Shown here piece after piece: positions 57,316 to 60,312 of a stretch of 64,000 nucleotides of DNA. The position numbers were made by a program, and so were the translations under genes. The stretch is from a bacterium (lineage in GTDB: Bacteria > UBA8248). The stretch spans positions 4,064,001 to 4,128,000 of the forward strand of contig OZ242260.1 of the NCBI GenBank assembly GCA_965207065.1, in the 5' to 3' direction. The notes beneath the pieces were generated by a model. It saw only the letters and a list, made by a program, of their open reading frames with translations. It had not been told where the DNA came from and ran no database searches. How positions within the stretch are numbered: the stretch's first letter is position 1; every line of letters begins with the position of its first letter.

Positions 57316-57590
57316 TCGAAGAGGAAGAGTTTGCGATAGCCCGGAAACGAGGAACATATCGGTTCGCAATTCCGCGCAGTTGCGCATATCGCGCGTGAAG
57401 CAATTTTCGCTACACTGGCGCGCAAGGTTCGCCGTCCGTGGCGGTTCGACAACTTGCGGGCGGGGGCGTTTCGGGAGAGCATCGAGAGCGGATCAGGGGG
57501 GTGGACGATGAGGCGAAGCGGTGGTGAATTCCAGACTTCGAACAGGGTTTCCCGAACGAGGTCCGCAGGCGCGGAGACGCCAACCGGAAT

Positions 57591-57652
57591 TTCCGTAAAT
57601 TTCGATAAATATAGATAAATTCACGGGATTTTTCGATAAATTGCCGTAAATT
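57591..57652. repeat. Degenerate 10-bp tandem array (TTCGATAAAT-like)
   Basis: TTCCGTAAAT TTCGATAAAT ATAGATAAAT ... TTCGATAAAT TGCCGTAAAT. Confidence 0.75.
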
Positions 57653-57830
57653 GAATTCCTGGGATATGACGCCCGGGGGCCGCGACGCAGGGGAATTCTG
57701 CCATGGCCCGCGCCTTCCGCGATAACGGAAAATGCGGGGAGTTGCGGGGGTGGATGCGCTTACAGTGAAATATACGCGCAGGCGTCATAACCGGCTGATA
57801 ATTAACGGGTAACCTAAAAAGGAGAGCATT

Positions 57831-58193
57831 TTGGACTGGATAGGAGTGGGACTTTTGGCGCTGGGCGCCATCGTGGGCACGCTCAACGCGGCCACTGGCG
57901 TGGGCTGGGGCATCATCATGATGCCCGTGCTGTTCCTCATCCCCGGGCTCACGCCCCAGCAGGCGGTGGCGGTCTCGATTCTCGCCTATCTGTTCAACTC
58001 GCTGGTCGCCTCGTTCGAGAACGTGCGAAGCGGCCTAATTGTCTGGAATTACGCGGTTTATCTCAGCATCGGGGCTATCGTCGGCGGCGTCCTGGGCGCG
58101 CATCTTCTCCAGACATTCTCGGCGCTGACGCTCAAGAGAATCGTGGGCGTCGTTGTGATCGGCGCGGGCGCGAGCCTGCTCATCAACCGCTGA
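57831..58193 (+). CDS. Half-size TauE/SafE (sulfite exporter-like) membrane protein
   Basis: G...G.G.G....P.L, AVA.S, G...GG.LGA; four hydrophobic segments; TTG start after AAGGAG. Confidence 0.8.
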   Translation: MDWIGVGLLALGAIVGTLNAATGVGWGIIMMPVLFLIPGLTPQQAVAVSILAYLFNSLVASFENVRSGLIVWNYAVYLSIGAIVGGVLGAHLLQTFSALTLKRIVGVVVIGAGASLLINR

Positions 58194-58197
58194 AAAG

Positions 58198-58226
58198 AAA
58201 ACCCCCCGTTTATGACGAGGGGTTTC
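58198..58226 (-). terminator. Intrinsic terminator between convergent units
   Basis: AAACCCCCCGT-TTATG-ACGAGGGGTTT hairpin with a T-run on the minus strand (and a short one on plus). Confidence 0.6.
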
Positions 58227-58329
58227 AAGCTGCTTGCGCTTCATAGGCTCCCGACTATACTGGCAGGGCATATAAAGTACACGAAATCAGCGATTTAACG
58301 TAATCTGTTTCATGCGATACATCGGCCGG

Positions 58330-58470
58330 CTATCCCAGCAGCTTCCTCTTCATCCAGCCCAAAGCCCGCGCCACGGCGGAGAACAGCCCGCCCACTCACG
58401 TGGGGCAGGCCGTTTGTTCCGGCGGCGTTTGGCCCTTATCGTGAATCTTCTCCTGCGTGGGGTTCGGCAT
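58330..58470 (-). CDS. Putative 46-aa selenopeptide with CxxU motif (UGA at codon 25)
   Basis: MPNPTQEKIHDKGQTPPEQTACPT-TGA-VGGLFSAVARALGWMKRKLLG-TAG; ATG 3 nt after the DUF971 stop, GGAGGAG SD; candidate SECIS hairpin after the TGA. Confidence 0.6.
58365..58381 (-). promoter_or_regulatory. Candidate bacterial SECIS element
   Basis: After the TGA: CTC-CGC[CGTG]GCG-C-GGG stem; apical loop about 20 nt from the UGA with G at loop position 2 (folded by eye). Confidence 0.4.
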
Positions 58471-58473
58471 GAT

Positions 58474-58827
58474 TCAGCCCTCTCCTCCCTGCGAGCTTTC
58501 GGCGCGTCCGGGGGCGATATCGTAAAGATAATCAAACGAATAGATGCCCGCGCCGCAGCCGCCCCGCCAGATGAAATTGATGGCGTAGCGCCCCACCATC
58601 TCCACGTTCTCGAGCTCTGTCGGCCCACTCGGCCCCGAGAGGACGGCGAGGGGGTTTTTCTCGCGCTCCTTGCGCTCCTCCTTGCAGTTCGCACACGGAC
58701 AAAGGGCCGCGAGGTAATCGAAGCCGTAGGCGCTCTTCTCCCCGCTCGCCCACTCGACGCGAAACTCGCGGGCGGGCTTGTCCACCGTGAGATCGACGGG
58801 ATGGGCCTTGTCGACAGGTGTGTTCAT
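58474..58827 (-). CDS. DUF971 / GBBH-like N-terminal domain protein
   Basis: W..G....Y...YL...CPCANC, VGRYAI...W..G...GIYSFDYL. Confidence 0.88.
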   Translation of the reverse strand: MNTPVDKAHPVDLTVDKPAREFRVEWASGEKSAYGFDYLAALCPCANCKEERKEREKNPLAVLSGPSGPTELENVEMVGRYAINFIWRGGCGAGIYSFDYLYDIAPGRAESSQGGEG

Positions 58828-58861
58828 AAGTCGTTGATCCCCTGAAGGTTATTGCGCCGCA

Positions 58862-59521
58862 CTATCTCGCCTTCATCCCGTATTTCTCATACTTCTTCGC
58901 CGAGGAGGTGCCGAGCTTGGCGGATTGGGGCGTCTTGAGCTCCAGCAGCCAGGGCCGCTCGGCCGAGGTGGCCCGCACGGCGTCCAATAGCCCCTGCTCG
59001 TCACCCTCGTTTTCCCAATCGCCTTCTTCGAGCTTCACGAAAACGGGTTTGCCCTCCCCGAAATCGAGCGTGGGAACGCCGAAGATGCCCTGCTCGGCCG
59101 CGTCCTCATGCTCTTGCGCAATGAGGGGGATGGTGGCGCCGTTTTTCATATCCTCCTCCCAGCGGTCGACGTCCAGGCCCACTTCCACGGCGATATCGCG
59201 CAGAACCAGCTCGCTGGTGATGTCCTTGCCGTCACGGTGCCTCGCCCGGTGGAGCGCCACGTGGTACTTGTCGAACTGCGTCTCGCCCTGTAAAGCCGCG
59301 CATTTAGCCGCCTGATGCGGGGGCAGATCCCTGCTCGGGAAGGTCTTGTCCTCCCAGGCCTTCCAGTCCTCTCCGCGCGAGGGGCCGAAATTCGCCTGCT
59401 CGAGCACGAAGGCCTTATAGTCCACATTCAAATCGCTTCTTTTCTCCTGAAGACGAACGAGCCACTCCATGGCCCTGTAGGCGTAGGGTCAGACGTAGCA
59501 GTTCCACATGGTGACTTTCAT
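58862..59521 (-). CDS. DsbA/FrnE-like thioredoxin-fold selenoprotein (UGA at codon 11)
   Basis: AAGGAG SD, then MKVTMWNCYV-TGA-PYAYRA in frame with the 202-aa ORF (cis-Pro loop GIFGVPT); the TGA sits at the active-site Cys position. Confidence 0.85.
59459..59475 (-). promoter_or_regulatory. Candidate bacterial SECIS element
   Basis: GGGCCA[TGGAG]TGGCTC hairpin; apical loop 19 nt after the UGA with G at loop position 2. Confidence 0.55.
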
Positions 59522-59567
59522 GATTTTCTCCTTAACAAACCGGGACATAAAGAAACATTGCGCGCCA

Positions 59568-59596
59568 ATCATACACCACAAGAACGCCGATGAAAA
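59568..59596 (-). promoter_or_regulatory. Possible sigma70 promoter of the selenoprotein cluster
   Basis: TTTTCA-17 nt-TATGAT on the minus strand, ~47 nt before the ATG. Confidence 0.4.
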
Positions 59597-59632
59597 AGCA
59601 GGACAAAGTCTTTTGAAAATAGCCGTATTCCG

Positions 59633-60232
59633 CTATTTTTCAGGCGTGAGCGCCTTGTTCAGCAGGTCTTGCGCACCCGCATTCAAGGAAAGCTCCCTGG
59701 CGGCCTCCTGCCCGCGCGCGGACATTTTCGCCCAAGTTTTCCGCAAGATGCCGATGATTTTCTCCTCATCATGCAGGCGGGAGAAATCCCAGAAATAGCT
59801 TTCCAGAAACACCAGACAGGCGACATCCTCGAGTGTCTGGGTTTCCGTGTCTGACTTCAAGCCCTTTTTTTTCAACAGCATCCGCACACGGGCAGTCGTT
59901 TGCTCATCGTAGCCCACCTTCTCGAGTATCTCGGCCGCTTTCTCCCCATGATAGTCGTAAAGGCGGATCCGCCATTGATGATATCCCTTCCGACCCAGTG
60001 GATATTCCGAACGTGGAATCTCCCATCTGCGTATGTGCTGGCTTCGCACAGCCAGGCGCAGGGCTTCAGAGGCTTGCGGCTCTATGGTATCTAGCCAGTT
60101 CGTCATTCTCATCGAATACAAAAGCTCTTTGGGGTATTCTTCGCCCTCGAAACTCTCGTTATTCGGATCTTCAGAATTCGCCTCATCGATGAGGCGCAAA
60201 GCATCTTCAAAACGCGTGGGTTGTCCATTCAT
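59633..60232 (-). CDS. DUF4202 family protein
   Basis: ID.AN.EDPN, ELLY..RM..WL, L.LA.R.QH..RWEIPR..YP.G..GY..WR, LEDVACLVFL, KTW.KMS. Confidence 0.85.
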   Translation of the reverse strand: MNGQPTRFEDALRLIDEANSEDPNNESFEGEEYPKELLYSMRMTNWLDTIEPQASEALRLAVRSQHIRRWEIPRSEYPLGRKGYHQWRIRLYDYHGEKAAEILEKVGYDEQTTARVRMLLKKKGLKSDTETQTLEDVACLVFLESYFWDFSRLHDEEKIIGILRKTWAKMSARGQEAARELSLNAGAQDLLNKALTPEK

Positions 60233-60312
60233 GATTCGCACCTTCTAAGTAGCGATAGGCACCAACTGATTCGTTCCAGACAAAACAACTCAAGAATAAA
60301 CACTTCTCTGGG

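Follow-up and report, generated by a model that had tools for sequence, protein, structure and literature searches.

The 64,000-nucleotide (nt) stretch of DNA analyzed here, hereafter the window, covers positions 4064001-4128000 of the genome of an uncultured marine bacterium with the label Nitrospinota, assembled as a single 4.48-Mb contig. On the minus strand of its positions 58330..59521 lie three open reading frames (ORFs), ORF1, ORF2 and ORF3, separated by gaps of 34 and 3 nt. ORF1 is predicted to encode a DsbA-like protein, ORF2 a DUF971 protein and ORF3 a small peptide, and both ORF1 and ORF3 contain an in-frame TGA three codons after a Cys codon. These features had been pointed out in a preliminary description of the DNA, and the coordinates, the gaps and the position of both TGAs (C8-Y-V-U11 in ORF1 and C22-P-T-U25 in ORF3, where U is selenocysteine, Sec) were borne out. 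Here, we present evidence that the three genes form a candidate operon with two selenoprotein genes.

ORF1 (58862..59521, minus strand) extends from an ATG at 59521 to a TAG at 58862 and has 219 codons. Its product begins with MKVTMWNCYVU-PYAYRAMEWL, the Sec codon being codon 11 (59489..59491, minus strand), and an AAGGAG ribosome-binding site is located 7 nt 5' of the start. As had been observed, standard gene calling truncates this gene and misses the third: the ORF list made with table 11 contains a 202-residue remnant of ORF1 (58862..59470) and does not include ORF3. Database records of ORF1 homologues have the same appearance. The 37 protein homologues found cover at most 92% of the query, none of the 12 that were fetched includes the Sec site, and nine of these 12 begin at the Met that follows the TGA.

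We searched 41 related genomes, the window's own genome included, for ORF1. Full-length homologues with 49-100% identity were present in 33 of them, each with the in-frame TGA and the motif C-Y-[VI]-U-P-[YF]-A-Y-R-A; an ATG occurs 10-14 codons 5' of the TGA in each homologue. The other eight genomes comprised one with a C-terminal piece at a contig end, one of another lineage with TGA-bearing paralogues 30-32% identical to ORF1, and six with no match. A pattern scan based on the ORF1 alignment, covering one genome per species for 185,579 species, yielded 46 confirmed loci, all from metagenome-assembled genomes (MAGs) labelled Nitrospinota, Nitrospinaceae or Candidatus Tectomicrobia. The Sec codon is TGA in all 46, and the scan detected no Cys form, though one of its two patterns would match Cys. 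Residues C8, Y9, U11, P12, A14, Y15, R16, A17 and C74 are invariant in 22 aligned sequences, and the ratio of nonsynonymous to synonymous substitution rates (dN/dS) is 0.07. Judged by this conservation, ORF1 is in all likelihood a selenoprotein gene with Sec at codon 11.

The sequence following the ORF1 TGA can form the hairpin GGGCCAU-GGA-GUGGCUC (59459..59475, minus strand), a candidate Sec insertion sequence (SECIS) element with 7 bp and a GGA apical loop; the stem starts 13 nt, and the loop 20 nt, past the UGA. Its free energy is -9.3 kcal/mol in context and -7.9 kcal/mol for the 17-nt hairpin alone, and 4 of 500 dinucleotide shuffles were as good. It agrees with the criteria published for bacterial SECIS (bSECIS) elements (PMC13188914, Fig. 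2 legend), i.e., a loop of 3-9 nt with G in its two initial nucleotides, a stem of 4-16 bp, a distance of 16-37 nt from the UGA and a minimum free energy <= -7.5; as a background, 227 of the 1820 TGA trinucleotides in the window (12.5%) pass simple bSECIS criteria. Among 34 distinct sequences the hairpin is kept in every one with all seven pairs (98.3% of cells paired). The closing pair is U-G in 14, U-A in 11, C-G in nine and C-A in none, and the Ala codon in the stem is GCC in all 34.

The genome has the machinery to decode such codons, a check that had been proposed for this locus. It contains tRNA-Sec (75.9 bits against a cut-off of 47; identified by ARAGORN as tRNA-SeC, anticodon tca), adjacent selA (579 bits) and selB (386 bits) genes, and a Sec-type selD (334.5 bits) with an in-frame TGA of its own, all four scoring above curated cut-offs. 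The selD gene (543537-544499, minus strand, outside the window) is itself a selenoprotein gene, with the motif KAGGU-GSKL and a GGA-loop hairpin 17 nt past the UGA. In the BSepDB paper (PMC13326102), FO_M_Nitrospinota_01 of the GTDB phylum UBA8248 is listed, with 54 selenoprotein genes, among the ten richest bacteria; one relative (L082), whose ORF1 is 73% identical, comes from the MAG of this name.

Two more DsbA-like selenoprotein paralogues were found in the genome outside the window, at 3457689-3458345 (plus strand) and 4172449-4172985 (minus strand), one with the motif DFLUPWC and the other with EYHUPWAY. The former (MENAPVRFTVYSDFLUPWC...) carries a TGA; the genome search reported it without stops because the matched part starts past this codon. 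In the EYHUPWAY paralogue, a hairpin combines a 7-bp stem with a GGC loop at a spacing of 20.

Pfam assigns ORF1 to the DSBA family (PF01323, E 1.5e-17), and no NCBIfam model reaches its cut-off. In phmmer alignments against the PDB, U11 falls on the Cys of DFLCPYAW in 7dk9 (E 4.9e-14) and, within a weak stretch (domain E 0.02), on the first Cys of the CPWC motif of FrnE. Cys at the aligned position was thus seen in distant homologues only; the UGA/Cys alignment that had been proposed as a check was obtained for ORF1 at this distance, and neither a close Cys form of ORF1 nor any Cys form of ORF3 was found. BLASTP aligned ORF1 with the DFLUPWC paralogue (E 8e-20, 24% identity) such that U matched U, C8 matched Asp and A14 matched Cys. 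Judging from these alignments, the genome has three DsbA-like selenoproteins, ORF1 being the one that has lost the Cys at +3 and has a Cys at -3. The view of ORF1 as a classical CxxU protein had to be abandoned in favor of a displaced arrangement, since Sec sits at the first Cys of CPxC, the second Cys is replaced by Ala, and the upstream Cys replaces Asp.

A model of ORF1 made with AlphaFold2 (AF2) from a 22-sequence alignment had a predicted local distance difference test score (pLDDT) of 85.2 and a predicted template modelling score (pTM) of 0.81, and showed a strand at residues 2-7, residues 8-11 and a helix at 12-27. U11 thus caps the N-terminus of helix alpha-1 in the model, where CxxC enzymes have their nucleophile. 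When the model was compared with 48,161 PDB representatives by VIA-align, the best match was 7dk9_A (DR2335; Z 22.4, root-mean-square deviation 2.4, 193 residues, 26% identity), followed at Z 13-16 by a hypothetical protein of Mycobacterium leprae, YjbH, HCCA isomerase, kappa GST and DsbM, which are cytoplasmic DsbA-fold proteins. ORF1 has no signal peptide, and its first strand begins at residue 2. As modelled, ORF1 is a DsbA-fold protein of the cytoplasm in which Sec occupies the place of the nucleophile.

ORF3 (58330..58470, minus strand) has 46 codons between an ATG at 58470 and a TAG at 58330. It has a polar N-terminal half, the motif C22-P-T-U25 and a predicted helix reaching to KRKLLG; its sequence around Sec is ...EQTACPTU-VGGLFSAVARALGWMKRKLLG, the Sec codon being codon 25 (58396..58398, minus strand), and its GGAG-type ribosome-binding site is situated inside the end of ORF2. 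ORF3 directly follows ORF1-ORF2 in 26 of 36 oriented loci, which represent 20 of the genus's 22 genomes as well as members of further genera and of one further family, and every ORF3 locus whose surroundings were read has this position. At 19 of the 26 loci its start (ATG in five, TTG in nine, GTG in five) is preceded by a GGAG-type ribosome-binding site and found 3 nt past the preceding in-frame stop, in the window that of ORF2. Two species of the genus (L058 and L059, genomes G007 and G001) have, in place of ORF3 and the TauE gene described below, an unrelated gene beginning with MRLSWNEMRARAAAFARRWEG....

A profile built from 24 ORF3 sequences was run on 51 genomes of the phylum. A match at E <= 0.01 was obtained in 34 of them, and in every one of the 33 matches at E <= 1.2e-6 there is a single TGA. 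Two further candidates were discarded. The 34th match (genome G028, E 0.0085) is a chance match, no ORF3-like sequence being present there, and a second match in the window's genome (1492798-1492881, E 7.1e-4, no stop), an apparent Cys paralogue, was dismissed because it lies out of frame inside an ORF of 273 residues.

Within the 24 sequences, which share 24-87% identity, U25, V33, W39 and R42 are invariant and C22, P23 and T24 nearly so. The N-terminal half is variable and polar, with a constant length within the genus, and the stretch after the TGA is better conserved than the stretch before it. On both sides of the TGA, dN/dS is lowest in the ORF3 frame (0.66 before it, versus 0.90 and 1.15 in the other frames; 0.55 after it, versus 0.83 and 1.59). 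Separate initiation after the TGA was considered and rejected: the next codon may be GTG, GCC, GTC, ATC, CTG, CCC, GCT, CCG or GGC, so that GTG occurs only in some relatives and no start is conserved. The two properties by which both genes were to be judged, a TGA kept in relatives and conservation beyond it, are thus seen in each: TGA is present without exception (46 loci for ORF1, 33 strong matches for ORF3), and residues in frame after both TGAs are kept across relatives.

ORF3 has no Pfam or NCBIfam match at E <= 1. An hmmsearch of 1.84 billion representatives gave one true match, P0041, a JGI/IMG protein of 46 residues with W at the Sec position; the other matches were long repetitive proteins that align with the polar N-terminal half only. 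P0041 does not represent a Trp variant, as the matching metagenome contig (L141) has TGA, and this gene call, which reads TGA as W, is the only sign of the peptide that the searched protein collections contain. A pattern scan of metagenome contigs at the DNA level returned 73 stretches, of which two were true ORF3 copies, both with TGA, and 71 were due to chance. In an AF2 model of ORF3, the first half is disordered and residues 23-45 form one helix with CPTU at its first turn (pLDDT 86 for residues 31-40). Prediction of a complex between the DUF971 protein and the ORF3-type peptide P0041 gave a score of 0.02, which speaks neither for nor against an interaction.

The candidate SECIS hairpin of ORF3 in the window (58365..58380, minus strand; UCCGC-CGUGGC-GCGGG) has 5 bp and a CGUGGC loop (G25-U26) located 20 nt past the UGA. 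Its loop, stem and spacing fit the bSECIS criteria and its energy does not. Hairpins of 5-9 bp with G-U or G-G in the loop occur 20-26 nt past the UGA in 24 of 25 distinct ORF3 sequences. Their loops differ (CGUGGC, CGUG, GGUC, GUCG, GGUCUG, CGUGU and GUU), and their stems are lineage-specific, i.e., UCCGC/GCGGG, CCGCGCC/GGCGUGG, CGCGC/GCGCG, CCUUUC/GGAAGG and UUUCUG/CAGAAA. Energies <= -7.5 are reached in 11 of the 25 (among them four of the L036 type, L042, L043, L044, L045, L057 and L083). In eight lineages, 75, 12, 2, 38, 40, 25, 91 and 36 of 500 shuffles were as good as the hairpin, figures that are not independent because the lineages are related. The classical UPWC paralogue has a 3-bp hairpin with loop G25-U26 at the same distance, read by eye where scripted criteria found none; weak hairpins therefore occur in accepted family members of this genome too. 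Overall, we think it probable that ORF3 represents a new family of small selenoproteins confined to one phylum, and there is a good chance, judging from the conservation of its frame, that the gene in the window has Sec at codon 25.

Between the two lies ORF2 (58474..58827, minus strand), which encodes a protein of 117 residues and matches PF06155 (GBBH-like_N/DUF971) with an E-value of 1.6e-17 and 64.4 bits against a gathering score of 22.8. It contains C43-P-C45-A-N-C48 and C91, and C43, P44, C45, A46, C48 and C91 are invariant in 16 sequences. A profile search of the PDB with ORF2 retrieved the DUF971 structure 3luu (E 1.1e-12), CPCANC being aligned over CPCAEC and C91 over the His of 'GH', so that ORF2 has four Cys where 3luu has three Cys and a His. 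From GBBH structures, we take CxCxxC and the distal His of DUF971/GBBH-like_N proteins to be metal ligands. ORF2 is thus a DUF971 protein with a putative Cys4 metal site. Its TGA is an ordinary stop; it was considered as a third Sec codon and rejected, as it has no hairpin and the stop is TAA in five relatives.

In the genus, the gene order is CobA (divergent), DUF4202, ORF1, ORF2, ORF3 and a convergent half-size TauE permease. The upstream neighbor (59633..60241, minus strand) encodes a DUF4202 protein (PF13875, E 2.4e-76) and adjoins ORF1 in the genus only. The convergent neighbor (57831..58193, plus strand) encodes a half-size permease of the TauE/SafE family that covers profile positions 1-110 of 237, and its synteny is at the level of the genus. 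In the family's other genera and in one additional family of the order, only ORF1-ORF2 is kept, with or without ORF3, and the remaining family of the order and the sister family of the class have ORF1 without DUF971. CobA, a protein of siroheme synthesis, is a neighbor of the DsbA gene beyond the genus as well, in further genera of the family; sulfite reductase and CbiX follow it in the window, the only place where sulfite reductase was seen. The setting given previously, between TauE and siroheme/sulfite reductase genes, therefore describes the window, with TauE shared by the genus and CobA more widely, and the DsbA-DUF971(-ORF3) unit is what is kept beyond the genus.

A sigma-70-like promoter candidate, TTTTCA-17-TATGAT (59568..59596, minus strand), lies in the 111 nt that separate ORF1 from the DUF4202 gene. 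The site is present as had been reported; it has 9 of 12 matches and must be called weak because the scan found 2 sites versus 1.1 expected. A terminator-like hairpin with a U-run (~58190..58226, minus strand), also noted earlier, is found ~105 nt past the ORF3 stop and is shared with the convergent TauE gene. It reaches -18.3 kcal/mol, which 3 of 200 shuffles matched, and a consensus scan of the region did not list it. An Rfam search of 57800-60000 gave nothing near a gathering score, and no NCBIfam family exceeded its cut-off.

Several observations concern the neighborhood of the operon and of its homologues. Between a SnoaL-like gene and the TauE gene, an inverted repeat of 52 nt, 90% complementary (56906-56957/57206-57257), flanks 248 nt in an ORF-poor region, and a short A+T-rich array of TTTCGATAAAT-like units (57590-57652) is situated just 5' of the TauE gene. 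At L057/L078 (genome G020), a second fragment of DUF971 and a second TauE gene, again half-size, lie in a duplication 3' of the operon. A full-length TauE-like permease gene directly follows the Sec-DsbA gene on the same strand at L054 (genome G026), which belongs to another family of the order, so the association with TauE is met again, differently arranged. Where DUF971 and ORF3 are absent, as in the sister family of the class (L047, L050, L051, L052 and L053), a small hydrophobic peptide is encoded ~200-300 nt past the ORF1 homologue; it has the pattern M-D-x-D-F-L-F ... F-S-I-F-R-R-S and ends at TGA or another stop, with nothing conserved beyond.

We consider it likely, on the whole, that the three genes constitute an operon of one bacterial phylum in which two UGAs are read as Sec and whose products act in a cytoplasmic selenol/thiol redox relay around the DUF971 metal site. 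This proposal starts from established gene structures, conserved TGAs and reading frames, the Sec machinery and the fold. Its functional part, the relay, is put forward tentatively, as a possibility short of probable. The SelA/SelB/SelC/SelD system would decode both UGAs as Sec by means of in-ORF hairpins ~20 nt past each UGA. The mechanism of ORF1 would depend on one selenol: Sec 11 would attack a substrate that is oxidised or thiolated, its target being a disulfide, mixed disulfide or some other sulfur or selenium electrophile, and either C8, C74 or the ORF3 CxxU may then resolve the adduct. Encoded on the same message directly before ORF3, the DUF971 protein may be a client or a partner bearing a metal or an iron-sulfur (Fe-S) cluster, and the relay would serve the metal or Fe-S site of this protein or of its clients. 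The contribution of ORF3 would be a peptide of 46 residues whose single amphipathic helix starts with CPTU. In a rather doubtful extension of this proposal, ORF3 would found a family of selenopeptides of 46-71 residues without a Cys counterpart and would be the dedicated redox partner of a Sec-DsbA with a displaced resolving residue; electrons, or a bound metal or sulfur species, would pass between two selenols by Se-Se/Se-S exchange, which could not be run on sulfur alone.

A number of findings weigh against this proposal. Its functional part is drawn from family names, distant cofitness data on DUF971 and gene order only, and DR2335, the nearest solved relative of ORF1, has no reported function. 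No pair of the ORF1 hairpin is changed on both sides among the 34 distinct sequences (6 of 500 shuffles scored as high), and its stem overlaps the codons of the conserved RA(M/T)EWL, so that protein constraint alone could keep it; the hairpin is SECIS-compatible, and its covariation alone is no proof. The window hairpin of ORF3, at -6.5 kcal/mol, misses the -7.5 criterion, and 75 of 500 shuffles (84 of 200 in a second test) were as good. By itself, in the window, it is no more than chance; of the two hairpins reported after the TGAs, both have loops 20 nt away, and the second does not stand out from chance level here. Selection on ORF3 is weak (dN/dS of 0.55-0.66 versus 0.07 for ORF1), two of the 22 genomes of the genus lack ORF3, and one species (L042) has WPTU, in which W replaces the Cys of CxxU. 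Confidence in the ORF3 model made with AF2 is low (overall pLDDT 64.7). No Cys homologue of ORF3 was found by hmmsearch in the 1.84 billion representatives or in the 51 phylum genomes, and the case for ORF3 therefore rests on conservation across the TGA.

Several of these points are shared by an alternative in which ORF1 is a real selenoprotein gene and the TGA of ORF3 is a stop, leaving a 24-residue peptide or no product, with the later stretch acting as a 3' RNA element. The missing Cys homologue, the chance-level hairpin in the window, the dN/dS of 0.55 after the TGA at high nucleotide conservation within the genus, and the fraction of window TGAs that pass simple hairpin criteria (12.5%) would all agree with it. 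Against it stand W39 and R42, which lie 3' of the hairpin and are invariant across lineages of 24-30% identity, the Arg 42 codon being AGG in some lineages and CGA in others. Moreover, length differences after the TGA keep the frame, which is open for 21-31 codons in all 26 loci, conservation is higher after the TGA than before it, and CxxU is a typical redox motif; hence we judge this alternative unlikely. It is far less probable, and indeed very hard to credit, that the TGAs are assembly errors, pseudogene lesions or codons for another residue under a changed code. The P0041 gene call, with its W, could be cited in favor of such an explanation, but the DNA behind it has TGA, not TGG. In independent assemblies, TGA occupies the same codon at every one of the 46 loci of ORF1 and in each of the 33 strong matches to ORF3, TGA terminates ORF2 and the TauE gene in the window, and the genome has a complete Sec system.

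A different alternative accepts both selenoproteins and assigns the module to the handling of Se or a soft metal, so that it would deliver, store or detoxify Se, Hg, Cu or As. Soft metals are well bound by Sec/Cys pairs and by a Cys4 site, Table 1 of PMC13188914 includes several metal-handling selenoproteins with CxxU or C/SxxU (e.g., MerT-like and CopZ-like), and the genes nearby are a sulfite reductase cluster and an anion permease of the TauE family. However, ORF1-ORF3 have no match to a metal-transport or mer/cop/ars family in Pfam or NCBIfam, the neighbors are conserved within the genus only, and the fold of ORF1 is that of cytoplasmic thiol oxidoreductases and isomerases. We consider this function improbable, about as much so as a plain stop in ORF3, and favor the selenol/thiol relay.

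If the two genes are read as proposed, public protein records hold the ORF1 family in truncated form (37 of 37 matches) and ORF3 as one misread call. These records suggest that a phylum already rich in selenoproteins has more of them than homology-based catalogues find. BSepDB was built by searches with representatives of known families, so it could hold ORF1 but not ORF3, and ORF3 would add a family that is undetectable by design in the usual search for Sec/Cys pairs. An operon that joins a selenoenzyme and a selenopeptide to DUF971, which is widespread and linked to Fe-S maintenance, would also offer a concrete way to approach the role of DUF971.

The arrangement had been put down as not recognized from earlier descriptions, and this stands for the operon and the ORF1 subtype, which are unlisted, and not for DsbA-like selenoproteins as such, which have been known since 2005. 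Our searches of the literature on Nitrospina/Nitrospinota selenoproteins did not find the DsbA-DUF971-ORF3 operon, those on DUF971, judged by title, turned up nothing on selenium and no selenoprotein neighborhood, and Table 1 of PMC13188914 has no DUF971 entry and no ORF3-like peptide. The multi-selenoprotein operons in that source (grdA-grdB, prdB-prdC, SAO and Tso) resemble the present one in having two selenoprotein genes per transcription unit and differ in their gene families, none including DsbA-like proteins, DUF971 or a micro-peptide. The small CxxU selenoproteins it covers (SelW-like, the CC/Se motif NF041239 and others) share with ORF3 the CxxU at a helix start and an in-ORF hairpin ~20 nt past the UGA, whereas ORF3 has no thioredoxin-like fold (a single helix in a low-confidence model) and no Cys counterpart.

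ORF2 agrees with other members of DUF971/GBBH-like_N (PF06155; 3luu, 2l6n) in a whole-length family match and in CPCAxC, and differs from 3luu in its Cys 91 at the fourth ligand position, which is His in that structure. [quoted passage not shown]

For ORF1, the closest known protein is DR2335 of Deinococcus radiodurans (7dk9), whose single Cys aligns with Sec 11 and is likewise followed by P-Y-A; it has Cys for Sec and Asp for the Cys at -3. According to a review (PMC8945050), DR_2335 is predicted to be cytoplasmic and DsbA-like, has a single conserved Cys and lacks experimental data. DsbA-like selenoproteins were reported from the Sargasso Sea in 2005 as nine UxxC sequences of COG2761 (PMC1088965), and a 2026 catalogue of 119 families distinguishes, in its Table 1, a form 1 (UxxC; COG2761/PF01323) and a form 2 (DxxUP) (PMC13188914). 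ORF1 shares with these forms the PF01323 fold, Sec at the first Cys of CPxC followed by Pro, and an in-ORF hairpin past the UGA, and it is set apart as a single-domain protein of 219 residues. Form 1, of which the DFLUPWC paralogue in the same genome is a classical member, has Cys at +3, where ORF1 has an Ala 14 that is invariant in 22 sequences; form 2 has the U-P of ORF1 with Asp at -3, where ORF1 has an invariant Cys, a distinction based on the motif description. By its motif, CxxU-P-x-A, which fits neither form, ORF1 appears as a new subtype of the known DsbA-like selenoproteins.

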